Assembly: GCA_965644265.1 (NCBI GenBank)
Contig: OZ286459.1
Location: forward strand, 85,870,001-85,934,000
Direction: 5' to 3'
Source of the DNA: Glycera tridactyla
Lineage: Eukaryota
Length of the DNA stretch: 64,000 nucleotides
Below the pieces are notes generated by a model. The model was not told where the DNA came from, ran no database searches, and was given only the letters and a program-made list of their open reading frames with translations. Of this stretch, positions 9,501 to 49,624 are shown one piece after another (the stretch's first letter is position 1; every line of letters starts with the position of its first letter). The position numbers were made by a program, and so were the translations under genes.

Positions 9501-10067
9501 AATGATGACCACCTTCTTTCACATCTCTGCCTAATGGGAATTGCTGCAGGCTATGATTCTTTGACTAATGGTCGGTGCTAATCAAGTTGACTAGATTCTC
9601 GTTGACTCACTCATGTTGGATCAATTTCCGGATCGATCCAACAATATGCCTCTCTCCGATCTAATAGAAGATTAGTTCTTCTGATGGTGTAATCTTCTAC
9701 CTTCATCTATGGAATTCAACTCACACATGCATCTGAAACCTACAAAATCTGATCTCATATATATATATATATATTGTTTCTTTATTTTGATTCGTCAATT
9801 GTAGTATATACATATACAAATATACAATGCCTCCAGTCGAAGGCGTTCCCAATGCGACGAATTATTATTACTGATACAATAATACATTTATGCTGTACCC
9901 ACTCAGTTCCTATATAATCGATCTTTCTGGTTTCAGACAATCCAAATAATACACGGGGTTGACATAATTAAAGTGAGAATGACAAATGAGGATGAAGATG
10001 AAGATGAAGACCCAATTGGAGAAGGAGAAGATAATAGAGGACGTTCCATTAGCTATGTTCACATGTT

Positions 10068-10089
10068 TGTAGAGAACATGTTCTCTACA
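10068..10089. other. 22-bp perfect palindrome (hairpin) in the LINE 3' UTR
   Basis: tgtagagaacatgttctctaca equals its own reverse complement. Confidence 0.85.
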
Positions 10090-10343
10090 TAACTACGACT
10101 CTATAGTAGACAATTAAGACAAATATTGTATAAAGATGAAATTTGGATAATAAAATGGATGATAAAATAAGTTTTCAACCAATGACTTGTTTTAATTTTA
10201 ATTTTGATTTTACAGTCTCACAGATTAAAATTCCAGAAATTAAGTTTAGGTATGATGCTTGATCTGATTTTTAGACTCAGACACTGTACAGAACATCTCT
10301 AAAAACAATAACACTGTCTATATCCTTCAAATGAGAGCTATAT

Positions 10344-13274
10344 TCAGGCAATATGCATAAATAGCTTCAACTGTTCCTTAAATATTTTCGGTGGTTTGCT
10401 TCCAAATTCTTCAAAATCTCTCACATAATTATTCCATAGATTACTACCTCTAAATTGAAAAGATCCTTCTGCCATTTTTGATCGTGGCTGATGTATTGAC
10501 ACATATTGCTTGTTCAAGGATCTGGTATGATAGTCATGTGATACATGCAGATAGGTACATAATGGATCATATTGTGGATGCACATTTCCTGTCAATATAT
10601 TATTAACATGTATCAGGGTATGGTACTGTCTACGACAGTCAAGGTATGGCATTTTTAGCACATTATGTACTTGGGATGTCCTTGTTAGAGGAGCACTTCG
10701 AGTTATTATTCGAAAAGCTTTATTTTGTACTTTTTGGAGTTTACTAGCATTTACCATACCCAGACTGTCGTAAACAATATCACAGTAATCAAATATAGGA
10801 AGGATGAGCGTCCTATACAGCATCAGGGACACATCTCGGCTGAGTCTGTCCCTGAGTCTGCCCAGGACACCCACCCTTCCCATAGTTTTTGATCTAATGT
10901 ATTCAGCATGACCTGAGAAGCTCAACGTTTCATCGAGGATGACTCCTAAATATTTAAAAGTCTTTGTTTGCTTTACCAATTCATTTTGGAACATTATATC
11001 GAAATTACAGCGATTTACCTGTTGTCTTGATCCAAAAATCATGATTTGCGTTTTTTTTATATTTAGGCTAAGTTTATTTCTCTTTAGCCAAATACTGGCT
11101 TGATTAAGAGCATTCTCAAGTCTTGTCTGTAGTACAATTGGATCCTTATTAGACACCATAATAGCAGTGTCGTCCGCATAGAGACTCATACTGAGCCCCC
11201 TCATAGAATGTGATAAGTCATTCACGTATATAGTGAACAACAGGGGGCCCAGTATGGATCCCTGCGGAACTCCACATGAGATTTCACATGCCTTAGAGGT
11301 TACTCCGTTTACTTTTACCTGACATGTTCGGCCTGTCAAATAACTCTCTATCCATTTCATACACATTGGGTTTGCACCGTACCTTTTCAACTTCTTGAGC
11401 AGAATGCCATGGTCTACCGTGTCAAAAGCCTTCTTAAGATCCAAGAAAAGGACCCCACTGGTATCTCGTTTTTCAATATTTAAATATATTTTATCTAAAA
11501 ATTCTAGTAAACATGTGCCAGTGGAGCACCCCTCCCTGAATCCAGACTGCTCTCGACACAGTAGACCATGACTTTCTAAATAGTTTGACACTTGGCGATG
11601 AATTAATCGTTCCAGGACTTTACCAAGGGTACATAAGAGACTGATGGGTCTGTAATTTGACTCACACGTCCTACTACCTTCTTTAAACAATGGTATAATG
11701 GTTGCCGATTTCCATTGGGTAGGAAAAGTCCCTTCTAGGATACTGGTATTGTATAAATGCTGTAAAATAGGGCATAAGGATTCTACACAATTTTTTATAA
11801 TTTTCGCACTGATCCCATCATCTTTTCCGGCTTTCGATGGTGACAGTCTATCAATTGCCTTCTTTACATCATGCATGTCAACAGTCGATAGGCTTAGGGT
11901 ATTACTTAGGTTATACGGAAAGTTTACAATAGGATCAGTCCCGTCACTTTTGATGGTCTCACTTAATTTATTCCCTATGTTACCAAAGAATTCATTTAAG
12001 CATTCAGAAATTTCATTTTTATCTGTTTTGTCTCCAATTTTCATAATTTCAGTTGAACCTTTCGATTTTCCCCAAAAAGCATGTATAGTTTCCCACAATT
12101 TCCTAGGTTCTGATTTATGTTCTTTTAGCGAGTCTTCTATATATTGCCTTTGGAGTTTACGTTTTAAAATCTTGCATCGCTTTTCTATTTCTTTCTTTAT
12201 TGTTTTGTTAATTTCAGAATTTTCTAATTTAAAAATCCTATTTGCTCTTTCTCGTTCCTTAACCAAGTCAAGGTATTCTCCCGTTAGCCATTTCGGCCAG
12301 TTTTCTCGGACTCGATGCCTTTTCAACGGGATATTTTCTGTTATGATATCATTCATAACCTGGTGGAAAATTCTAGTGCAGTTATTGGTATCATTACTAG
12401 AAAAGAATTCATTCCAGTCTGCAGATCTTATTTTATCCTGAATTAATTTAAAATCAGCCTTGGCAAAGTCTCTGAAAAAAACAAATTCGGATGCTTTTGA
12501 TACAGGCAATTTCTTTCTTACAACAATCAACATACTATGGTCTGATATGCCTGTATCAAAAACTCCATGCTGGTGGTAGAGTTCTGGGCAGTTCACATTA
12601 AAATGATCAATCAGGGTTTTTGAAAATTCGGTAACCCTAGTGTGCTTTGTGATTAATTGTGTTAAGTTATTACTTTTCAATGTTTTATAATATTGATTAT
12701 TTTTATTTAAAGTTACCAAGTCGATATTGGTGTCCCCGGCTACCAAAACATCCCCAAATTTACACTGTTCAATTTTTATAAGACTCTCATCCAGCCAATC
12801 ACAAAACACACTCTGGTTTCCGCTGGGGGGTCTATAAAGACCACATATATAAATCGGTCTAGTATCTGGGAGCAACAGTTTCATCCAGAGGGCTTCAATA
12901 TCAGGGCAACATATAACTGTGTCATCCATAAGTTCAACAATACGATTCTTTCGAATGTATACAATCAGTCCTCCTCCGGTTCGCTTACCACTTTCAACTG
13001 TTCTATCGGCTCGTATGATATAATACCCCTGGATACTAAGTTCTGAATTTTCTATGGTTGGTGAAAGAAATGTTTCAGACAGAATGAAAATATCAAGTTT
13101 ACTCTGTAACAAAAGTAATTGTATGTCATCCACCTTTTTCACAAGGCTTCTTATGTTGAGATAGCCAATTTTCACCCCTTTAAAGTCATTGCATTCATTT
13201 ATCGATGCAAGTTGTCTAGTTAGTTTCTGGAAGTCCTTCTTCTCACATGCAGGTGGGTCTATTTTTGATGACAT
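10344..13274 (-). CDS. LINE ORF2: APE endonuclease plus reverse transcriptase, 976 aa, intact
   Basis: APE motifs YLNIRSL, LSETFL, GLYRPP, GDTNID, LIDH, SDH. RT motifs NYRPISLL, QSGFR, FLDLKKAFDTV, GVPQGSILGPLLF, YADD, KYLGV. C-terminus YHTRS...SFQFRGSNLWN is typical of the CR1/L2/Crack group. No stops or frameshifts. Confidence 0.97.
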   Translation of the reverse strand: MSSKIDPPACEKKDFQKLTRQLASINECNDFKGVKIGYLNIRSLVKKVDDIQLLLLQSKLDIFILSETFLSPTIENSELSIQGYYIIRADRTVESGKRTGGGLIVYIRKNRIVELMDDTVICCPDIEALWMKLLLPDTRPIYICGLYRPPSGNQSVFCDWLDESLIKIEQCKFGDVLVAGDTNIDLVTLNKNNQYYKTLKSNNLTQLITKHTRVTEFSKTLIDHFNVNCPELYHQHGVFDTGISDHSMLIVVRKKLPVSKASEFVFFRDFAKADFKLIQDKIRSADWNEFFSSNDTNNCTRIFHQVMNDIITENIPLKRHRVRENWPKWLTGEYLDLVKERERANRIFKLENSEINKTIKKEIEKRCKILKRKLQRQYIEDSLKEHKSEPRKLWETIHAFWGKSKGSTEIMKIGDKTDKNEISECLNEFFGNIGNKLSETIKSDGTDPIVNFPYNLSNTLSLSTVDMHDVKKAIDRLSPSKAGKDDGISAKIIKNCVESLCPILQHLYNTSILEGTFPTQWKSATIIPLFKEGSRTCESNYRPISLLCTLGKVLERLIHRQVSNYLESHGLLCREQSGFREGCSTGTCLLEFLDKIYLNIEKRDTSGVLFLDLKKAFDTVDHGILLKKLKRYGANPMCMKWIESYLTGRTCQVKVNGVTSKACEISCGVPQGSILGPLLFTIYVNDLSHSMRGLSMSLYADDTAIMVSNKDPIVLQTRLENALNQASIWLKRNKLSLNIKKTQIMIFGSRQQVNRCNFDIMFQNELVKQTKTFKYLGVILDETLSFSGHAEYIRSKTMGRVGVLGRLRDRLSRDVSLMLYRTLILPIFDYCDIVYDSLGMVNASKLQKVQNKAFRIITRSAPLTRTSQVHNVLKMPYLDCRRQYHTLIHVNNILTGNVHPQYDPLCTYLHVSHDYHTRSLNKQYVSIHQPRSKMAEGSFQFRGSNLWNNYVRDFEEFGSKPPKIFKEQLKLFMHIA

Positions 13275-13679
13275 GTTGATGAATTTATGGATGATATTCT
13301 ATATTTTATTTCTAAGTAGAAAATAGTTTGAGTACAGCAATAGTTATATCTACTACGATCAAGATGTTTAGTGTATGTTACTATAGTGTATTTTGTATAA
13401 AACAAAATAGACTTTTCTCTCTTTGTGGGACAGTAGGTCCTACACCAACTTAGGTAGTCATAATAGTTTCGAATAGAAAGATAAAGCTGTACTCCAGCAA
13501 AAAGTTATAAAATTTTTAAAACATTTTTTTAAATTATCAGATCAGGGGGGAAACCCCGAGAGGAATTCTCTCCAGAGCTGTTTTACTCCATTCAAAGATG
13601 CTCTATAACTTACTCGAAATATGATTTCTAAATCATCTTTGCATGGCAGACGATGGACACTTGATCAAACAATAGAAAC

Positions 13680-14170
13680 GAAAGCTTGAATTTGTAACTC
13701 CCCATAGCATACACTGAGGGAATTTAGAACACAGACATTTCCTACTGGAAAACACTTGACAGTGAATAAGCAAACAAATATAATCTGAGTAGATAATCAC
13801 GTTTTGAGTCACCTTTGAAAAATTGTTCAAATAACATGTCAAAATAAAGACGAAAGCGTGAATTTGTAACTCCCCATAGCATAAACTGAGGGAATTTAGA
13901 ACACAGACATTTCCTACTGGAAAACACTTGACAGTGAAATAAGCAAACAAATATAAATCTGAGTAGATAATCACGTTTTAGGTCACCTTTGAAAATTTGT
14001 TCAAATAACATGTCAAAATACATTGAGAAAGCTGGGAGCAAAAGCATTTCCTGTTGAAAAGAAGAAAAGAAAACAAAAGAAAACAAAAGAAAACACTCGG
14101 CAATAAGTAATAATCAGAAATAAATCTCAGTGGATAATCATATAACGAGTCACCTCAGGATAATGTTCAA
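13680..14170. repeat. 172-bp tandem repeat (two near-identical copies plus a degenerate partial third) upstream of ORF2
   Basis: gaatttgtaactccc starts at 13688 and at 13860. A diverged partial copy lies at about 14110-14180, and a short (gaaaacaaaa)n run at about 14065-14095. Confidence 0.92.
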
Positions 14171-15680
14171 TTAACATAACAATCTGGTACAACTCTGAAA
14201 ATAATATAAGCATGCTGATTAAGGTTCTACTCAGATAAAATAAAATAAAATAAAGTACGAATCTTTTGGCTGTCTGACTCTTGAGAAGTTAGGTGTTCTG
14301 TTTTATATTCAATCCAAAACTAAGTTTTAATGGATACAACATATTCATGATTATATCAATAGCCATCAATGTCTCCCAATTTTTGGGAATGTCCTAATGC
14401 AAAATCAAATTTGTAATAGGGATGTTCTTCATTATACTTTAGCGAAGCAGCTGATCTTATTAAACAAAATAAAACATACTGAACAAAATGAAGCAAAGTC
14501 AATGCAGAAAAATGACTTCATGATTCACCATATCTACTCATATATTCACTCTTCTAATTCAGTCAAACCCATCCTAGGCCTGAATCTTTTCATCTTCTAA
14601 TCAAGTTTTTAATGCAAGAAACAAGAACATATGAGCAGTATAGAAACTCCTACAGGATATTTCTACATTGCAGATCAATATTTGCAGTGAAACATTGTCA
14701 TAAGAAAGATCTCAGCCCTGATAGTATTTGAGCAGTCATGCACTCTGTTTCATAATCAGATTACACAAAACAATTTCTAAAGCTATTTCTGAAACTCACC
14801 TCCCATTTCACCATGGAGCATTTTGTACACATTACCATGCCTCCTTCACAAACACTTAGCCTAGTAGTCAATGTCTAAGATGACATCATTTTTCTATAGA
14901 AGACAGTAAATCATCCTATAGATCAAAAAGCTTGCTAAGTTAGATCTATTGCATTATAGAATGAGTCCATTATATTTACTTCTGATCAATATTACATCTG
15001 TGTATTCACACAATACAGATGAAAACCTTTCATTGGGAACCAACATTCTCTTGACCTTTCTCATCACATTTCTCGGGCATTCAGTAGGTGCAATGACTTG
15101 GAGAGGCAGTGCTGGCACTAGAGAATTAAATTTTGACACAATAATTATTCAATTATAATATAATATCTATCAGGCATTTTTGCAGCATTTTCTCCCAGGA
15201 CCACAGCCAACGGTGAGAACCGGGATACACTCCTCTGCAACTCTACCCTCTTCCAGAACATATTTATTTAGTATTGTAATAAAGTGCAAAATCTTCACAA
15301 CCTTGAAACTAGAATAAATGTATAAGGCATCTTAGGACCACAGCCAATGGTGAGAGCCTGATGCCTCAAATCTATCCCAGCATGTGTGCCAGATGGCACA
15401 ATTTTATTTATATATGGATCCTGTGCCAGAGACCCGCCTCACCAGTTCACTGCATCCACCTGCTCCTTTTGGGTTGATAGATATTCTGATACATTACCCC
15501 TTAAAACATCACTATACATACCATCCCAATAGCAAAAAACAGGTGCACATTCAAAATAGTTTCCTATCGACTAGGTATATGTTTCATCACATGTTTGGTT
15601 GACAATTTTACAGAAACATAAGTTCACATGCATAGTAGTTTCATGAAATCCAGCTGATTTGGTACATGTTTCACCACATT

Positions 15681-16556
15681 TTATGTAGCATAAAACCAGT
15701 TGTCCAATAAAGGTCCAACCACAGAGTAGCATAGACCAAGGTTACCGTATTGATTTAGGTGTATCTTATCTGAAAGAAACATACCATTCATAATATCCCC
15801 ATGGGAACAAGGTCTCTTTTTCTTCTGTTTCTTCAGCAACCTCATGAGCTGAGAATATGTCTCAAACGGCTTGACGAAAAGATGGTGTGTATGTAGAAAA
15901 AGCATTTTAATGAATGCATGATTTTTAAGATAATGATCCACCCACAAGCCTAACACCCGGGTTTCATCATCCCACCCATGTCTCCATGTAATTGGTATAA
16001 AGCAAAAGGTGGTAAGCGGGAAGAAGCTATGCAGCAATATGAGTACTTCACATATTTTATTTATAAGATAGCTATATTCATCATGTCGCATTTTGATGAT
16101 CTTTCTTTTCCGAATACGTGGGTCCCTAATGTTTCGATTTATGGTTCTTATTTTAGTAGCGAAACGATCCAAATCGTTTGAGCCCAAGACCAATACCAAG
16201 TAGTTTGGTGCTCTTTTGGCGTCTACCAGTTTCTGTAGAGTATTGCCATATCTTCTTGTCTTCGTGGCTCCTGCCTTTGTCTTTGCAAATATGCCTTGGA
16301 CTTCGTTTACAAAGCAGCCCCAGCTGGCCCCACTTATTCCCTTGTATTCCCATGAAGTTAGTAGGGATTTCATTGTGTTTTCCTGTGGCATTTCTTGAAC
16401 AAATTTTCCTAGCCTCCACACATGGCTACTTCCAAGAAAAGTCACATCCGGTCCTCCATAGGTATAAAGGAGGTCTCTACGACGATATGCTGGGCAAGTC
16501 TCATGGCTCCAATTCACTCTTTGTTTGGCAGCATCAATAGCAGGTTGATATTCCAC
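15681..16556 (-). CDS. SGNH/GDSL hydrolase (esterase), predicted exon 2, 291 codons
   Basis: Block I FLGSSH (catalytic Ser), block II GISG, block III VLGSND, block V DKIH. The frame starts at GTG directly after tttgctag, an acceptor-like sequence. Confidence 0.88.
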   Translation of the reverse strand: MEYQPAIDAAKQRVNWSHETCPAYRRRDLLYTYGGPDVTFLGSSHVWRLGKFVQEMPQENTMKSLLTSWEYKGISGASWGCFVNEVQGIFAKTKAGATKTRRYGNTLQKLVDAKRAPNYLVLVLGSNDLDRFATKIRTINRNIRDPRIRKRKIIKMRHDEYSYLINKICEVLILLHSFFPLTTFCFIPITWRHGWDDETRVLGLWVDHYLKNHAFIKMLFLHTHHLFVKPFETYSQLMRLLKKQKKKRPCSHGDIMNGMFLSDKIHLNQYGNLGLCYSVVGPLLDNWFYAT

Positions 16557-17113
16557 CTAGCAAACATATAAGACATACAAAATTTAGTTATCAAATTAAG
16601 CATATCTAGGTATACAAAAACTTTGGAATATATTTCAATTTTAAGGTATCACATATATAGTATTTAATTTACTTTGTTGACGTGTTATGCATTTATATGC
16701 CTTCATTCTCACCATATGTCATCAGGATTTTCATCACACTAGTTAATCTTTACATGCCAACCTCAGGCCTTAAAGAGAAAAAATAAGATGCGCCCTTGTT
16801 TGGCCAAGAGCTCACACGTGCGCGCGTCATATTTCGAAATTACACGCTACACTTATTACTAGTTCAAAAATTTCTATAATGTGTTATCTCTACATACCTT
16901 CACTCATATCCTGTATCATTAAAAATTTTATGGTTAAATTTACATGCCATATTCCATTATAGAGGAGAGAGAGTTACATTCTTGTTTTACCAACTGCTCA
17001 CACGTACACGTGTCCGTTGCTGAAACCACGCGCTACCGTGTTATTCGCAATGCTCGTCTAATTTATGATAATTTTCAACTCGCGTATGTCACAGTACGGA
17101 AAGCAATAGATAC
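16557..17113 (-). other. Predicted 557-nt GT-AG intron in the SGNH gene
   Basis: Begins GTATCT and ends aactaaattttgtatgtcttatatgtttgctAG, with a branch-like ctaaa and a U-rich tract. The interior is AT-rich with no long ORF on this strand. Confidence 0.6.
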
Positions 17114-17185
17114 CTCATTTCGATAGCCCATGTGGAAGTCTTCTTCCCTTCTATTTGTTATATTAGCGGCGTGACTTGAAGCCAT
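17114..17185 (-). CDS. Predicted exon 1 of the SGNH hydrolase gene (MASSHAANITNRREEDFHMGYRNE)
   Basis: ATG in gaaATGG context, 24 open codons, ends GAG|gtatct in phase 0. This matches the phase-0 acceptor at 16557. Confidence 0.62.
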
Positions 17186-17252
17186 TTCGAGGGCTTATTT
17201 CTCGTGTGTTTATCACCGGAAATAGTATCTATGTCGTCGCACATGCGCATCA
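17186..17252 (-). promoter_or_regulatory. 67-nt CpG-rich spacer between ORF1 stop and SGNH ATG, with NRF1-like and ETS-like motifs
   Basis: TGCGCATGTGCG at 17238-17249 on the minus strand (one mismatch to the NRF1 consensus) and CCGGAAAT at 17216-17223 on the plus strand. Confidence 0.3.
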
Positions 17253-18854
17253 TTAGATTCCGGTTTTAGATCCGCGGCTTGTTCGATATTTTGGTTTCCG
17301 TGAACCACGACCAGATTTACCTCCTCTCACAGCTGTATCAGTTGAGTGTTTTAGGTCTGGGAAATCATCTTGGTTTGGTATATACGCCCCTCCAAAATTC
17401 AGTGTTGATTGTCTCATGGATTTGAAACTTTGCTCTTTTTCCAGAATTTTAGATTTTATATTCTGTAATTTTTTTAAGTTATCACTTTTTTGGGGGTTTG
17501 CACCTTTCCCTTGGTTACTTTCCTTACCTTTAGATTTAGAGAAAATCTGTGGGTCTAAATTTGGTCCGGATGAATTATCGAAGTCACTGAATTGTTTAGG
17601 CATATTGGTTTGATCCAGATCAGATGCTGATTTGGGAAGCGTCAATTTTGTTGAATTTGCTGTAGTTACCGGTTGGGGTGGATCATTTTCCTTGTTACTG
17701 TTCTTTTCTTCATTCCCATCTACAGAATGTTTTTGATTTTTCCCAGCTCGTTTGATTGCATCTATCAACGTTTGTTGATTTCTGAGCATTATTTTATTCT
17801 GATCTCTTCCATGTGAAATGCAGACTCTTCCGTCCTGCGTCCAACAGAAGGCGATCTTACCTTCTTTTTTTGCTTCCCTCGCAAGACTGAAAAGTCTCCC
17901 CTCCCATGGTGTGAGTTGTTCACGAAGAAAGTAGTTGGTGCCCTTTAGGGATATCTTATTTTTTAGTGCTTTTCGTCTTAAGTTAGGATCGCAGAATCTT
18001 ACCATAACAGCCCTTGGTCTATCTTCTCTGATTGGTCCATACCTGATCACTTGACAAATATCATCCAATGTAATAACTAGGCCTATATTTTTAGCAAAAA
18101 AGTTTATAACATGTTCATGTAGGGTAACATTCTTCCTTATTTCTAACCCTTCAACTATCACAACGCTGAGTCTCTCTATCTTCTGTACGAGATCAATATC
18201 AATCTCATTCTTTTCTATTCTCTCTTCAGCATTATCCATTCTGGATGACAGTTGATATAAGAAATCCTTTATGGCATCCGTATCTTCTTGTGAAGTGTCG
18301 ATGAGATCGTCTGATTCTATCGCTTTTAACTCTCTTTCACTTTCAATGGCTAGTTCTCTCAGTTTATCTTCCGTGGTTTTTATTCTTTCTTCGTGGTCTT
18401 GTAGTTGGGCTTCATTTGTCTTTAGGCGGTCTTCGTGGTCTTGAAAAGCTTCTACTAGCCTATGGTGCTTATCCAGCATCTCTTTCTTATTGTTTCTTGA
18501 TGCGTTCTCTATCGACGTTTCCACGTAATCCTCTATGTCCATCCTGCAAGCTACTCGTATTTCAGCAAATTTATGTTGCAATCTATCGTCAATAACATTA
18601 TCCGCTTGAGTTGTAACAAGTTTCCGAGCAAGATCAATAAATTCATCATTGATTTGCATCCGTCTTTCCACTGCCAGATTTACTTTATTTTCAATAAGTT
18701 TGTCAAAAGCAACTGAATCAGTCATGTAGCTCGCATCTACTTTCTCACTGACTTGAGTCACATCAACATCATCACCATTATCCTTCAGTGACATAGTAGT
18801 TTTGGTTTCATAGCACTCTTGTGGGATTTGCATGGACTCGTCAATTTCGTCCAC
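17253..18854 (-). CDS. LINE ORF1 (transposase_22-like nucleic acid chaperone: coiled coil, RRM, CTD, basic tail)
   Basis: Coiled coil with repeat QDHE[DE]R[LI]KT; RRM-like VVIVEGLE...RYGP...RPRAVMVRF; CTD-like FLREQLT...WTQDGRV; basic C-terminus. The track start is GTG. First in-frame ATG is at 18833, and the frame stays open about 53 codons upstream of 18854. Confidence 0.88.
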   Translation of the reverse strand: MDEIDESMQIPQECYETKTTMSLKDNGDDVDVTQVSEKVDASYMTDSVAFDKLIENKVNLAVERRMQINDEFIDLARKLVTTQADNVIDDRLQHKFAEIRVACRMDIEDYVETSIENASRNNKKEMLDKHHRLVEAFQDHEDRLKTNEAQLQDHEERIKTTEDKLRELAIESERELKAIESDDLIDTSQEDTDAIKDFLYQLSSRMDNAEERIEKNEIDIDLVQKIERLSVVIVEGLEIRKNVTLHEHVINFFAKNIGLVITLDDICQVIRYGPIREDRPRAVMVRFCDPNLRRKALKNKISLKGTNYFLREQLTPWEGRLFSLAREAKKEGKIAFCWTQDGRVCISHGRDQNKIMLRNQQTLIDAIKRAGKNQKHSVDGNEEKNSNKENDPPQPVTTANSTKLTLPKSASDLDQTNMPKQFSDFDNSSGPNLDPQIFSKSKGKESNQGKGANPQKSDNLKKLQNIKSKILEKEQSFKSMRQSTLNFGGAYIPNQDDFPDLKHSTDTAVRGGKSGRGSRKPKYRTSRGSKTGI

Positions 18855-21800
18855 TTGAAGTTCCGCCTGGCTGAACGTGACACCGTCTTGTTGCTTATCG
18901 TCTATTTTTGGCTCCTGGCGATTCGATTCAACTTCTAGATCATTTATCGAGCCCTTCTCTGATATTTGGGTCGATGTGATAAAACTCCCCGAAGTTACTA
19001 CTATACGGTGCGGTTAAGAATAGAACAGGGGAATTCATGAATGAGCTAGTAACATCATGTTTGCTTTGTGCGATATGGTTACAAATGGAATGATAAATCC
19101 CATAGATACCCCAACAAAATGTCCTCGCCAAACATCGTCATGTCTGGTATGTGCAATATAGTCAAGAATGATACACTCCGTGTTGAACAACGTCATGTTT
19201 GATACGTAGAATATGTTCATGAATAGAACAGTGGTACACAAAATATGTCGTCGAAAACATGGAGAATAAGGTTGAGAATGGTACAATGGGACACATAAAT
19301 ACCTCTGACGTGTTTAAATTTCTCACAATTGTCACTGTTAATGTGGGAAGCATGGCATGGCAATGATTGAATTGTTGTCAGCCATTATATACCGAGGATT
19401 GCACATTGCACGACAACATCACATCAGCCTGGCTCACACCTTGCCTTTCTCTCACCACCTGATGCGTAGATACTTGCCAGTTAGATACATAACCCCATCA
19501 TCAACAAAGGGCCCTATCCGAAGATCTTTCGATATATCTCCATGTCAGTGTCTAGAATCCGTCGAAATAACAGCAGGTCTCAACTATCTCTCTTTTGAGA
19601 ACAAGGAGGAGATTTTTGAGAAAATTGGCACTCGAAGGATCACGATCTCGGACGTGTTCACAGACCATGGCTGGCTGGTCCGTAGAAGGCTTGCACGTGT
19701 ATCCCTGTCAGTCTGATATTTGGCTAAGGGACTCAGACATTCTCAGACAAAGACCCTTCTTCTTCGACAAATGATATTCATTTTCCGGAGGGAACTCTCA
19801 CAATCAACGTTATATTTGTCACAAATCCACATGTATGATGATCAAAACCTACCTTTAAGTCTTATATGTTCAAGACGGGACTGAAGCCATTCAACGTTAC
19901 ACATTCAATCGATCACGTTCGAATCAGTGATATCTCAAAATAAACAATTTCTGAAGAAACCCAAGTCCTCACAATAATCTTCCTAGCCAGGATGGAATCT
20001 TCAACGAGAGTGCATACCCTCTCAACAGATAATCCTGAAGAGTGCCCGCCACTTGGATACATCATTCACTGATCACTCAAGTGAGCTAAAGTCAGCTACG
20101 TTATGAGAACTCCATTCGTTGATGAAATAGAGCCATCCATCAGATGTCAGCTTTGCACTCTTTGACATAACCGCTTACCATTGTCAGAGCATCAAACCGC
20201 TCAGAATATTCTTGCCATTGAGACTTGATGGAGTGTCACCAAACAGCTCATGCAACACCTCTGGAGCCATCTCGATAACAATGCCATATCTGAATGGTAA
20301 TAGTCATGTTTCTAATCTTTTGTAGGTGAGTAGAAGCATAAGCCATCCTGGATGCCAGTCATGATAGTATAAGTATGAGCTTTCACTGTAAATAGCCGAC
20401 AGCTGATGATATGGTAGCATGACTGACATATCGTCGAATGGTTTTTGTCGAATGTCGGGAAACTTCTGTCGTAAAAGATATGTAAAGGTGACAAAAAATG
20501 GAAGGGTTGATGGAGATACATGCCATTCGTATCCTTTGATAGAACAAGTTCTGACTTTGGTATACCGGAGTGGTGATGTTGTGACCAATTTTGGCGAGAA
20601 ATATGGCAATTTCGTGATGAGTGACGCGATCTTTGAACTACATGTATGTTGTAACAGCCACTAGTCACATATTTTCATATGGTCAAATTAGCCACCCACA
20701 ACATAATCAATTGCGCAGTACACATTTTCGGTGCGTTTCTCTTAATGGCGTGCAAGGCAGGAACTTGGCATGGCTTGAAGCTTTTCATATTCTCCGTTAT
20801 ATCAAACGAAGGACTTGTGACAATGATGAAGGACTTATGATATGATCATATTTCCATCTGTCCATGGATATGAAGGGATCATAGGACTTTCTTCCAAGAT
20901 GAGTGATGTGGTGATAAGGGGATGATTTGACATGATGAAGTAGTTCGATTCTACTACCAATAAATCGAAATGTAATTTTGCAAAGACGGCCAGGAAAATG
21001 ACGCCAACTTCGACACAGCTGTACCTCATTGTGCACATGTATCTAGAACTTGATAAACTCACATATAACAATCACATCAGAAACCATACTGCCAACATCC
21101 GAAGCCATCCACTGGTTGTCATGATCTCATTGAATAACCATTCGCGGGTGGAGAATTCCATTCCATGATGAAATGTACTGATTTGGATACAGTTCAATCA
21201 TAATTGACAAGCAATAAATTTCGTGAGAATTTATAGAATCTGGTATTCTCGAGTACATGATAATTCAATATGGGACAAGATGCTTGAGAAATATGAATTA
21301 TCAACACAGGAATATTCTTCAAGTGTCCTCAATTTAGATGAGATGTCGCGTGCCAGGGTTTGCTCCCAATTGAAAAAAGTTGAAATGACCCTTCTCTATA
21401 CGGTCATACAGGTGTTTCCATTGTGTCAAGTTGTTGTCCTCGTAATGAAAAATGAAAAAAAAAATGGTGGTTGGTCGTTTTTTCTTGTTTTTTATGTGTT
21501 TTATTGCTTATCGTGCAATCATGTTTTGACAATAGACGTGGGTGGAATCATCTAAAATCTTAATGGAAGATAAAACTACAACAACGAGATCATTCAAATA
21601 GTATGCCTATGTACATCTTGAAACATCTATTTTTGCTTGCACATAATTGGTCGCCATCGCTGACAGAAGCTCTGTGGCTACCGGAAGAGAAGGTGGAAAA
21701 AGGAACCATGATGGCCGGTCAACATTTCGTGGGCACCACTTCATCAATAGTAATGCCCTTTTGGAATGCAGAATATCTTGCTAATTGGGAACTCCATCTT

Positions 21801-44287: not shown

Positions 44288-46857
44288 AACAACAAGTAGC
44301 ATCGGGCAGATCTGAACCTGTTTGGAATTCGACAGTTTGGCCGGCTGATTAATGATCTAATGTCCCGTGAGCAATGAGTGGACCTTTTTACAATGGGCAT
44401 GATTATCCGAAATTTCAAATGGCATGATTTGGACACAGTAACAAACAGTGCCACCGGTCTGGAATAACTATCAACAAACATGATTGTATGATCACACAAA
44501 CTTGGCTGCTAATTGGACTCAAAACAGAGTTGTACACGCCTTGATGTCATGAAAAGAAAAATTTACAACTTAAAACGTGACAAACATGATGATTCATGGC
44601 TGCATCATACCTGGATGAGGGAAATGAGCTGACTGGCTAAATTCCATATTCCAAGCAAATTCAAAAGGATTCCGAACAGTTCAAATTTGTATTGCTGAAT
44701 CCGGTGAGGTCTGCCCTTCTCCCCCCTTGAACAGCCCTCGAACACATCACCGCGTTACCCCACCCCACACACTCACACTCACAAGCACTCGCATATAAAG
44801 ACAATGGACAATTGACATCATTTTATCAAAGTTCCGGATACAAGGTCATGATTTCCAAAAAAAACCAAACTTTTTAAATTTATCTGTTCATTTATCTTTT
44901 CGTTTCCTTCATTCATTCATTCATTCATTCACTCATTCATACACATTGGTAGTTAGCGAGAAAATTCAAGACTATGAGTCAGCTCCGTCGAGGGAAGGTC
45001 GGAATAATCAATTCGTTCATCACTCATTCACTTGCTTTGTTATGTATCATTCCATTCATTTATCTATTCAGTCATTCGATTTTTCAGTCACATATCACGT
45101 CTTTGAAAATCTGTTGGGAACTAGCGCCATAGGCCAGATGAAACTGACTCCACATGTGATCATGAATGTTGTGGTAATGATACTTCACTTGAAATTGAGT
45201 GGGTGTGTTGCTCGTTACGCCTGTCTAAGGGTATGATTGGTGACGACCTCTGGTGTCATTAATCGCCTCCATGCCGGCTTCTGTGGGGTGGCACCACCTT
45301 CATGGTTTACACCAACAGCCAGCAAGCCTGAAATGTCTCTCATATTCATTACCTTGGTCATATTGAACCCTCCACTACGTGAGTTGCACCCGCCAAGCAA
45401 TATACATGGACAGATCAAATCGAACCTCAAAGTAAAGTGTGTATCCAAATCGATCCGTGTTTTCAAACTTTTTCAGAAATTGTAATCCACAAGCCGCTGA
45501 ATATTGTCATCATGTCAGATGTTGGAAAGACGAATGGGAGCAATTTACATAATATGATGAACTATTTTTGGGATGAACAAGAAGGCATCTGATATTGCAT
45601 AATTGCACAATAACGGGGCACTGCACTTGCACAGAGCCCATATTTTGCCGATATGATTGTCTGTCTATGCGAATACAAAGGGTGATCCAATTCCCACTGA
45701 GACAGCCTTTACCCAAGCCTATCCACGCATTCTATCCTTGTGGAAGCGTATCTATTGGGTCAGGTTTCTTTTTCACAGTTTCATGACAAGCTGAGACGAC
45801 GCATCAATGTGATGAGAGTTGTTATGTGCCGTGCTAACAAAGATTGATCCCATTGACAGGAATTGCAAGAGAGAGAAATCTATATGCATTCAACAACGTT
45901 CAGTTCAACTTGTTTTGAAGAAGTTGAGCCAACAGGGGTAGGGCATATTACAGTCCTAAATCAGAATGACATAGAACACTTTCGGGTTGATTCATATACA
46001 CTAGCCGATCAATTAGTTATCATCCAACACCTCCGTGATGTAAAATTTCGAGAAAGAAGGACAGAATGAAGGAGAAAGAGTGGGCGCCTATGGTGATTGG
46101 CACCTCTGCGCCTCCTTATACAATCAAGTGGAGGTCATGGCTTGGTGTGTCTTTCTATAAACCAAACCTAATCAGTCTCGCAAATTAGACAGCCAGCTTC
46201 ATTACAGACTCGTCAAGGCTGCTGTCCTTACCATACTAATGATCCTTGCGTAAAGACCAGGGGACCAGCAGGATAGTCTTGCCGCCCTTCATTTCCACCC
46301 ATCCCGGAAGCTATTAATTTTGCATACTCGGTTCGGGTACCAATTTGCAGTCGGTCCGTGGCAGTGAAAATAAAAACCGGAGACTCTCTTCAGCTAGGGA
46401 ATTCCTGGTGTGTTATTGGTTACATAACCCAACCGCTGAACCTGCTGTGGTCACTGCCCTTGTACGCACCTCATGAAGACTCTGAACTTACATGATCAGT
46501 CATAATTGTGTGTTGGTCTGAATATGTACAACATCAGACATATGGAGGGTGTGTTGGTGTAGGGACAGAAGTGCTGAGCTCGCCTCTCTCTACTGCCACT
46601 AACCCCATATCGTGTAAAGCACGCAATAGACACGTGGTGATATGAGCCAAAGCCTCTTCTGATCCGGGAGGGTTTAATTAAAATCAAGAATATTATAGAT
46701 ATTTAATCCAACCACATCCAAGATGAAGGCCTGGTACAACAGTTCTCTATGGTTCAACCAATTCTAATTAATACTAGCCTCTTACTACATTAGCACTAAC
46801 TCACTGTACATATTTGTGTATATATGTTGAATTTGTTACCTGGTTACCTGTTCTATT

Positions 46858-49624
46858 ATGTTACAATTCCCTACTCCCTTCCCACTCCCAGATCTTGAAT
46901 ATTCAATTGCTGCACTGTCGAGACAGAGGCGAATAGGATTTGGATTTCTCAACGTAAGAAGCTTAGTTCGAAAAATTGATGACATCAATATTCTTCTCAT
47001 CAGAAGTGGTCTTAAGCTGCTAGCGCTCTCTGGAACATTCCTAAATGGATCAATCTGCTCGGCAGAACTAGATATCCCTGGATATACATTACATCGTGCT
47101 GATCGCACACCAGCGAGTGGGAAACTATGTGGTGGTGGTATTGTGGTCTATACAGATAGTAACTATGATTTCATTTTGGTGGAAAATTCCCACTACGTTT
47201 CCCCAAATATTGAGATCCTGTGGCTGAAATTGTCACTCCTGCACACTCGACCAACTTATATCTGTGTGATCTATCGGCCCCCATCGGGTAGTGTGAACGT
47301 GGTATTGGACAAACTAGAACTAAGTCATTTACACCTGAATCCAGAGGCCTTTTCAGACGTCATATGGCTCGGAGATATAAATGTGGATTTCCGTAAAAAG
47401 ACCCCTGCTGCTCGTAAATTACGTCGTATAGGCTTAAAATACCACATGTCTCAACGCATTCGATCCCCAACCAGGGTCACGAGTGAAACTGCCACGATGA
47501 TAGATCACATCTGGGTGAATAACACCACCCAATTTTCGTATTCAGGAACCATACATCCGGGGATCAGTGATCACTCCTTAGTATTTATCTATCGTCAGCG
47601 TGCAAAATTAAGCCGTATACGACATTGCTTCAGTTACAGGACGAAGAAGGATCTAGATACTGGTACATTAAATAGAGATCTCCCCGAGCGTTGCGATCGA
47701 ATTGAGGTCTTGAAAGAAGACATTGACGGAAGCATCAGTGTATTAAATGGTGTATTTAAAGCCGTACTGGACAGACGAATGCCTATAGTATATAAGACTA
47801 GAAGAGTCACAAATGCCCCGTGGGCAACTGATAGTTATTTGACCGGGGTGGACAAGCGCACCTATTGGTCGTCTTGCTACTCAAATACTGGCCATGGAGA
47901 CCACCTGAGGCAAAAACTAATGTGCGCAAATGAATGCATGGAAATCAAACACTACCTTAAGAGAAACCATATTAATGACCCTATTATAAAAGCAGGGGAG
48001 GATAACCGGAAATTATGGAATATCTATCGCTCTCTTTACCCTAGGGCCAGGGCCACTGGCCATACCATACCCAAGATCAGGGGCTGTCTCTCTACCGAGG
48101 AGGGTGCCAACTGCCTAAATGAATTTTTTACAAATGTTGGTCCTGAACTCGCGGCGGAAATAGAATCAGTGCCCACAGAGACATTGCCCTCCCCGCCCAC
48201 CGATAAGTTCACCCTACATGAAATTGATGAGACGGATATAGAAAAGATTGTCTCAAACCTGAAAAAGTCCAATGCTACTGCCGAGGATTCTTTCTCTAAC
48301 GCATACCTGTCACTCACTCTACCGGGGCTACGGAAGATTCTCACCAAGATAAACAATGCCTCACTGGAAAGAAGTATATTTCCTGCCAGTTTAAAACGAG
48401 CTATAATAACACCCATCCCGAAAACTAATAAACAATGTGACCCAGGGGATTTTCGCCCAATTTCAGTTCTACCGTGTGTCGGGAAAGTCTTGGAGCGAGT
48501 GGTGAATAATCAGCTGGTGGATTATCTAAACGTGAATAAAACCGTGTTGAGGGCCCAGGCGGGGTTCAGGAAGTATCACTCCACAGTCATGTGCCTAGCG
48601 GGCTTTACAGAACACATTTATGGGGCAATAGATGAGGGCAAGATGGTGGGGGTGATCTTTCTGGATCTCGCAAAGGCCTTCGTCACGGTCAACCATAATC
48701 TCTTGCTTGAGAATCTCCTGACAATTGGCCTTGATGAGGTATCCTTGGAATGGGCAAACAGTTATTTGAGCAAACGATCCCAGGCTACTAGGCTTAGCAA
48801 TACTGTATCCTGCCTTCGAGAAGTGAAATGTGGAGTACCACAGTCTCAAATTGTTCTTTAAGCGAAGAAAATTGAGCTTGAACTTATCAAAGTCTTGCTT
48901 CATGATTTTGGGTTCTAAAAATAGGCTAAATGCTAATAAAGCTGAGACAGACACTCTGGGTGATCGCCTTGGTATGAAACAAGTCGTGTCCATGAAATAT
49001 CTGGGATTCTTATTGGACCCAAGTCTGACGTTTAATGTACATATCTCTAAGCTGATCATAGATCTACAAGCTCGAACGTCCCAGTTACGACGTAATAGAT
49101 CCTTGATGAGCCTATATGCTGCCCGACAAATAGCACTTTCCGTTATAATATCTCCGGTCAACTACGGGTGTACAATCTATGGGGGAGGTAGTGTGACACT
49201 CTTAAAGAAACTGGTCGCTGCTTTTAACGATCTACTTCGTACTGTCTGTAGAATGGACTCAAGTGTTCTACAACCTCACCTTCTAAAGGCTTGTAACCTT
49301 CTGAGTCTTGAGTCAATTCGGAAAAAACAATTGTTGCTAGAAACCTTCAAGATACGCCATAATGAAACCTCCATTGAACTACGTACGATCTTTGAGAAAT
49401 ACATGCCGGACTACTCAAGGGAATCATTGCGAACTAGAAGTCATGAGAGAGGGGGTATGTTGCCTCCACTTCGAGAGACCGAACTTGGAAAACGTTCATT
49501 TACTTTCCGCTCGATATCACTATGGAATAATCGTCCAACTGATCTACAAAATGCAACTTCCACACTCGCATACAAACGAGCACTACATGAATATTTCTAT
49601 AAAGAGATGCAGAGCCACAGTTAA
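46858..49624 (+). pseudogene. CR1/L2-group LINE ORF2 (APE-RT), inactivated by an internal deletion and frameshift
   Basis: APE motifs FLNVRSL, IYRPPSG, GDINVD, MIDH, SDH. RT motifs DFRPISVL, QAGFR, DLAKAFVTV. GVPQ joins directly to LKLFFKRRKLSLN in another frame at about 48843, so GSILGP...YADD is missing. The thumb and HER...SFTFRSISLWN C-terminus are retained. Confidence 0.95.

Follow-up and report, generated by a model that had tools for sequence, protein, structure and literature searches.

A LINE of Glycera tridactyla with an L1-type ORF1 and a separate, intron-split gene for a predicted esterase

A LINE of Glycera tridactyla was found to combine an L1-type ORF1, which contains an RRM-CTD, with a separate gene for a predicted SGNH hydrolase that is split by an intron. 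This combination is real and makes the element a new LINE variant, whose mechanism of expression is deduced from the sequence. LINEs are expected to lose introns, since the copying of a spliced RNA fixes the loss, and retrotransposition reporters rely on this loss. We consider it fairly probable that the element is a three-gene LINE employing two RNAs: an unspliced full-length RNA would serve as the template for transposition, and a shorter RNA would start at an internal promoter and yield the esterase after splicing.

The element lies in a stretch of 64,000 nucleotides (contig OZ286459.1, positions 85,870,001 to 85,934,000), which is called the window here and to which all coordinates refer. 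Its features are:

9758..19001 (-), whole LINE copy, alike to copy E01 (L061/L062) from 19001 to the (TA)n tail at 9758
17253..19001 (-), ORF1, N-terminus lost, L1-type RRM-CTD at 17724-18221
17186..17252 (-), predicted internal promoter of the SGNH gene, GCGCATG motif at 17242-17248
17114..17185 (-), SGNH exon 1, 72 nt, 24 codons from ATG to GAG, supplies the ATG
16557..17113 (-), phase-0 GT-AG intron, 557 nt, ends invariant, interior drifting
15681..16556 (-), SGNH exon 2, 291 codons, GSS(43)H, GISG 73-76, GSN(127)D and D263-x-x-H266
13275..15680 (-), spacer of 2406 nt without coding sequence (relatives: about 1.3-2.5 kb)
13272..13454 (-), block ahead of ORF2, conserved and free of ATG, possibly an element for translation entry
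10344..13274 (-), ORF2, 976 aa, apurinic endonuclease and reverse transcriptase (Pfam)
9758..10343 (-), 3' UTR, predicted hairpins, GACGAA..AAATAAAG motif (9780-9796), short-repeat tail

Organization and spread of the element

The window copy is 9.2 kb long, is 5'-truncated by about 360 nt compared with its nearest full-length relative and lacks the 5' start motif of the family. The order on the minus strand is ORF1, the intron-split SGNH gene, a 2.4-kb spacer and the APE-RT ORF2. Using exon 2 as a query against the 2.04-Gb genome of the same species, 3471 first-look candidates were obtained; 134 of these were scored, and every one was at least 51% identical. From the exon-2 and DNA searches, 30 other long copies were chosen to span 54-93% SGNH identity and were taken with 20 kb around each. 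All 30 keep the order ORF1-SGNH-ORF2, ORF2 is open in most of them, and no other long ORF is common to them. The identities of SGNH and ORF2 co-vary, with a Spearman coefficient of 0.84 over 231 non-independent pairs from 22 copies. Another family member, G000:C1:86011968-86012816 (+), whose SGNH is 56% identical, is located about 125 kb from the window copy, and the window also holds the APE-RT ORF2 of a LINE from another family, split into two frames (46831-49624, plus strand).

Near-identical pairs of copies are alike from a sharp 5' start to a 3' block with a short-repeat tail, and their flanks are unrelated. The start is marked by an ATGGC(C/T/G)G motif, mostly with AAG ahead of it, which we take to be YY1-like. 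In a young subfamily, three of five copies are 5'-truncated, each at a different point. LTRs are absent, the 5' truncation is variable, and the 3' end is fixed and carries a simple tail; short-repeat tails are present in most copies, and the GACGAA-type 3' motif was found in 10 of 12 representative copies. The shared sharp 5' starts, the truncated copies and the short-repeat tails indicate RNA-based LINE insertion. A search of 21 copies revealed no convincing target-site duplication; such duplications are rare in the CR1 group.

ORF2 matches the Pfam families RVT_1 (E 5e-42) and Exo_endo_phos (E 0.005, below the curated cut-off), and several homologues of the RT region carry PF03372/PF14529; the few named RT homologues bear generic names. 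By its sequence, the element classifies as an APE-type non-LTR retrotransposon, that is, a LINE. Its features are compatible with, and not diagnostic of, the CR1 group (CR1, L2, Crack, Daphne, Kiri): its ORF1 is of type II (L1-like) and its tail is not plain poly(A), and both features occur in this group according to excerpts of PMC4120745 and PMC13343379, respectively. The core of ORF1 was modelled with a pLDDT of 86.8, and its 10 best Foldseek matches are all human LINE-1 ORF1p (best E 9e-6); in this model, it folds like the RRM-CTD of human L1 ORF1p. Pfam Baculo_FP_2nd was detected in ORF1 of 10 of 11 members, and the window ORF1 likely also holds a coiled coil, as judged from its sequence.

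The SGNH gene and its two exons

All 17 aligned members agree at the catalytic positions in each of the four SGNH blocks. Pfam Lipase_GDSL matches exon 2 in 10 of these 17 (best E 2.4e-5), and exon 2 of the window copy alone gave no Pfam match. When the model of exon 2 was compared with SGNH hydrolases, the best Z score was 12.3 (rmsd 3.6, 175 residues aligned) and the best Foldseek E value 0.0025. An Atlas look-up of the protein returned GDSL-type and unnamed clusters at 0.93-0.94, and sequence searches of the PDB revealed nothing significant. The four blocks and the modelled fold identify exon 2 as coding for an SGNH/GDSL hydrolase, a predicted esterase, whose sequence includes many conserved basic residues.

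Exon 2 of the window starts with GTG. An earlier note on this DNA had proposed that an upstream exon provides the start codon, and its exon and intron coordinates, the phase 0 and the fusion protein of 315 aa proved exact to the letter. It had also stated that there is no ATG near the start of exon 2; indeed, the first in-frame ATG comes only at codon 56, beyond the predicted catalytic Ser43. Its assignment of the SGNH gene to a LINE is borne out by the constant gene order, and the conservation of GT/AG and of the exon-1 frame, which it named as a check, was found throughout the family, as described below.

Exon 1 is kept in 30 of the 31 long copies (window included) and has a length of 23-24 codons; the exception is copy E03, in which a deletion takes out exon 1. 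The pN/pS ratio of exon 1 is 0.24, 0.20 and 0.35 in three subgroups, and in shifted frames of subgroup A, pN is near or above pS. From these ratios, exon 1 is judged to be under purifying selection while the intron drifts.

A conserved intron

Dinucleotide shuffles of the 696-nt gap produced such an upstream ATG exon in 29 of 500 cases; the window copy alone therefore goes only modestly beyond chance, and it is conservation within the family that decides. The donor GAG/GTA is present in all 30 long copies with exon 1, and a phase-0 AG in all 31; a YAG acceptor with T-rich positions upstream was found in 30 of 30 copies. The introns are 279-557 nt long, fall into all three classes modulo 3 and contain in-frame stops in 30 of 30 copies. 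Their interiors are 33-68% alike to that of the window, with 14-41 gaps, whereas exon 1 is almost gap-free. Removal of the intron restores one conserved frame, and the interior appears unconstrained. Loose matches to a branch point, whose position varies, occur in 8 of 15 copies. More distant subfamilies (L153-L163 and L168-L181) use GTGAG-type donors. The intron of the window copy also contains a 56-nt imperfect repeat with CACGTG motifs (16795-17036). The intron is almost certainly real and, by its donor, acceptor and frame, has the sequence hallmarks of a major-class spliceosomal intron.

Additional information comes from run X1, which consists of assembled contigs, presumed to be RNA, that cannot show transcript starts. 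The X1 pieces are about 97% alike to the element and tile 9848-16555. Letters 32-372 of X1 record 6 (372 nt) align to 16555-16215, and the first 31 letters depart from the intron sequence; in the bin with exon 1, the depth equals about 34 letters of an X1-type contig. A contig that ends at the acceptor in this manner is suggestive of a spliced RNA. The X1 contigs cover neither the intron nor most of ORF1, and the runs X2 and X3 contain little of the element; such gaps in coverage carry no weight for or against splicing. Splicing was rejected as the cause of the gaps in X1 record 1, one of which removes 103 nt of the RT (window 11249-11351) with non-canonical ends and the other one 173-nt repeat unit; these gaps likely represent allelic deletions, the 103-nt gap marking a broken allele.

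Word-based protein searches found no homologues, whether the query was the single protein or alignment A1. A profile search, however, revealed 98 distant SGNH homologues, which come from other sources and are without genomic context. In 32 homologues, enough of the N-terminus is present for a comparison, and 11 of these carry Gln precisely at the phase-0 acceptor codon, compared with a background of 3.6% (binomial p of about 1e-7 after 17 offsets, relatedness ignored). This Gln mostly follows hydrophobic residues, which is expected where gene prediction has run on through a pyrimidine tract and CAG. Of the 21 remaining homologues, nine possess 22-27 extra N-terminal residues, corresponding to the length of exon 1; since a profile of exon 1 matched none of the 98, these extensions agree in length only. 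L185, the sole outside DNA homologue, has an acceptor-like AG that is 1 nt off, and exon 1 was not found in it. Taken as sequence patterns, these data make it likely that the intron position is old and shared. For the distant SGNH protein P0101 and the APE-RT protein P0144, the longest contig listed has the same length, 10385 nt, a possible hint of one common element.

The RNA that is copied

For a larger survey, 89 distinct copies with the start of exon 2 were pooled from every locus fetched. AG is present in 86 of them, and the end of exon 1 is detectable in 79. In all 79, GT follows the end of exon 1, 253-672 nt upstream of exon 2, and not one is intronless. This limits the share of spliced templates to less than roughly 4%, assuming independent copies, which the copies are not fully. 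Six of the ten copies without the exon-1 motif could be accounted for: E23 and L130 carry a variant exon 1, L121 is truncated in the intron, and in L038, L048 and L004 (E03), separate deletions with imprecise ends have taken away the donor together with some of the intron, none of them being a clean intron loss.

Genome-wide pattern searches gave a similar picture. The pattern of the exon-1 end followed by GTA had 165 matches, part of which were read individually, against none in the reversed control. Followed by GTB, it had 27 matches; inspection of each showed that every one is a donor by sequence and that exon 2 follows in 26. There was no match in the genome in which the pattern was followed by G and a non-T base. 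With a non-G base, 19 matches were found (control 10): SGNH was nearby in none of the seven that were read, and the other 12 are part of the tandem array to which one of these seven belongs. An exon-exon junction pattern of subfamily A had no match, compared with 11 for the donor pattern, and a junction pattern of a second subfamily, searched without a positive control, likewise had none. Copy L182 is 95-96% alike to E25 and E26 over the region that begins 39 nt into the intron and runs as far as the 3' tail, and its upstream sequence is unrelated. Such a start suggests that the reverse transcript stopped in a retained intron; a later deletion is also possible.

RNA-mediated movement and the lack of intronless copies together imply that unspliced RNA is likely copied, and these sequence data support unspliced RNA as the transposition template. 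The earlier note had suggested an unspliced genomic RNA and had named a search for intronless copies as a check; the 79 copies and the one truncated inside the intron agree with this part of its proposal. Its comparison with the retroviral layout, however, does not hold, since the donor is located behind ORF1; splicing alone cannot put exon 1 first in an RNA. Instead, the sequence points to a second promoter or to re-initiation.

A proposed internal promoter and the route to ORF2

The CpG observed/expected ratio is 1.37 from the ORF1 stop through the 5' half of the intron and 1.08 at the 5' end of the element, compared with 0.34-0.61 in the ORF bodies, the spacer and the flanks. In 16 of 18 representative copies, a GCGCATG-type motif, presumably NRF1-like, is found no more than 13 nt from the ORF1 stop. 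Copy E27 lacks this motif and has kept the intron, which counts against the proposed promoter. In several of L153-L163, which represent more distant subfamilies, a GCCAT(T/C)T motif, which we regard as a reversed YY1-like site, lies upstream of exon 1, and this motif suggests promoter turnover. We regard the CpG-rich stretch and the fixed motif beside the ORF1 stop as suggestive of an internal promoter that would drive the spliced message.

According to our proposal, the full-length RNA would start at the 5' motif, which leaves about 2.2 kb between its cap and the donor, and would be poorly spliced at this donor; left unspliced, it would give rise to ORF1p and be copied into new sites. The internal RNA would start just before exon 1, thereby placing the donor near the cap, where it should be spliced well, and would produce the esterase after splicing. 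As this short RNA lacks ORF1, it would escape packaging in cis by ORF1p and would not be copied. By analogy with ZfL2-1, the esterase might direct particles to membranes, or its role might be the turnover of lipid esters.

A separate route for ribosomes to reach ORF2 would be needed, and the conserved block directly ahead of it is a possible candidate. There are 34-69 ATGs upstream of ORF2, and an ATG-free run of 100-288 nt precedes it in all 18 copies. In nine close copies, 69 of 208 columns of the block are invariant, while the rest of the spacer drifts, and TCA/TCAT repeats close the block 13272-13454 just ahead of the ORF2 ATG. The block may govern the translation of ORF2. Covariation is weak (2 of 10 pairs), and a conserved IRES-like fold is unsupported, with a structure z of -3.5 in the window copy and -2.1 to +1.6 in 12 others. 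The spacer also contains a 172-174-nt tandem duplication (window 13671-14020). No conserved poly(A) signal was found in the spacer across representative copies, which counts against the short RNA, and a strong acceptor-like site at about 14051 was discarded as a candidate because it is unconserved across copies and X1 contigs appear to run through it.

A broader reading, which we put forward tentatively as somewhat less probable than the two-RNA scheme itself, is that the element belongs to an undescribed, multi-species lineage of animal LINEs with a virus-like strategy: two promoters, a spliced esterase gene with an ancient intron position, an unspliced template and, for ORF2, a structured entry of its own.

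Alternative explanations

The strongest competitor, although rather unlikely, gets by with a single promoter and is close to the retrovirus-like reading of the earlier note: some of the full-length RNA would be spliced, the esterase would be made by re-initiation after the ORF1 stop, and only the unspliced fraction would be copied. The conservation of the intron and the unspliced template fit this scheme equally well. Furthermore, the ATG of exon 1 lies 25-69 nt past the ORF1 stop in 30 of 30 copies, which resembles the short inter-ORF spacer of L1. However, a spliced full-length RNA carrying ORF1, ORF2 and the 3' tail should yield intronless copies, as spliced L1 RNA does (PMC5860796), and these were found in none of 79 cases, and the CpG peak and the fixed motif at the ORF1 stop would be left without an explanation.

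Control of the Rev type is improbable. Here, a factor of the element or of the host would block splicing, or would export or select the intron-holding RNA, and the esterase or its basic exon-1 peptide might take part. The survival of the intron, with no loss seen, in subfamilies with SGNH identities down to 49% would agree with such control, as would the conserved basic residues of the SGNH protein. The interior of the intron, however, is unconserved across subfamilies, and the 7-mers that are shared are mostly AT-rich; thus, no response element is evident.

There is very little room for the view that no splicing takes place, that the GT and AG are remnants and that a near-cognate or internal codon serves as the start of exon 2. 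The initial GTG of the window exon 2 could be read in this way, and an ATG precedes the catalytic Ser in 11 of 31 copies. In the other 20 copies, however, Ser43 precedes the first ATG; subfamilies differ in the codon with which exon 2 begins, exon 1 is under codon-level selection, and an invariant GT and AG flank a drifting interior.

Least credible is spread as DNA, by duplication or as cargo of a DNA transposon like texim in Helitrons, which would make the retention of the intron trivial: intron-bearing SGNH genes do travel in fish Helitrons according to excerpts of PMC4021074, target-site duplications were not found, and copies E21 and E23 share repeat-rich flanks, but the end structure already largely refutes this explanation, since the likeness of near-identical copies is confined to the stretch between the 5' motif, or a variable truncation point, and the 3' tail, and the open ORF2 of most copies, with no other long ORF shared, likewise speaks against it.

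Comparison with known systems

No intron-split third gene of a LINE is described in the literature searched, which did not include Repbase, Dfam, subscription journals or supplements. The word intron does not occur in PMC3905857 and PMC4120745 and is used in PMC13343379 only for an outgroup; PMC11203168 contains none of the terms intron, SGNH and esterase. As LINE annotation assumes that there are no introns, such genes can be expected to escape it. A coding intron that is kept through deep divergence and was lost in none of 79 copies indicates that, in a LINE, the RNA used as the template can be kept apart from an accessory message, and the element makes the choice of the template by a LINE directly testable.

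The closest relatives in terms of gene content are the esterase-bearing LINEs of the CR1, L2 and RTEX groups, such as ZfL2-1 of the zebrafish, which are likewise APE-RT LINEs with an SGNH domain upstream of ORF2 and intact catalytic residues. In these elements, however, ORF1 itself codes for the esterase, preceded by a coiled coil and with no RRM (excerpts of PMC3905857, PMC4120745 and PMC13343379), whereas in Glycera the esterase has a separate, intron-split gene behind an RRM-CTD ORF1; the definition of type IV LINEs (esterase-ORF1, no RRM) does not fit for the same reason. In the parts of PMC3905857 consulted, none of the esterase ORF1s in RepBase had an RRM, and it was suggested that RRM and esterase may be redundant or mutually exclusive. 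The element described here pairs these two modules, which, on that account, were never combined in one ORF1.

The retention of introns after retrotransposition is unusual and characteristic of Penelope-like elements, as stated in excerpts of PMC8557442; in Penelope and Chlamys-3, the intron overlaps the internal promoter and sits in the 5' UTR. As far as these excerpts go, Penelope-like elements differ in having another RT class, a GIY-YIG endonuclease or none, and pseudo-LTRs, whereas the Glycera element has an APE-RT ORF2 and no terminal repeats, and its intron splits a coding accessory gene. Human L1 shares the ORF1 fold and the presence of splice sites in LINE RNA (SpIREs; excerpts of PMC5860796). 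In L1, splicing is described there as harmful, as it removes promoter or ORF1 sequence and leaves dead spliced copies; here, it is apparently needed for a protein, and the copies examined include no spliced one. In bdelloid LTR and Athena elements, a GDSL/SGNH gene forms an additional ORF3 of its own, and the ORF3s of LTR elements are typically expressed from spliced messages (excerpts of PMC5408684). The backbone of these bdelloid elements is of the LTR or Penelope-like type, whereas the backbone that carries the separate SGNH gene in Glycera is that of a LINE.
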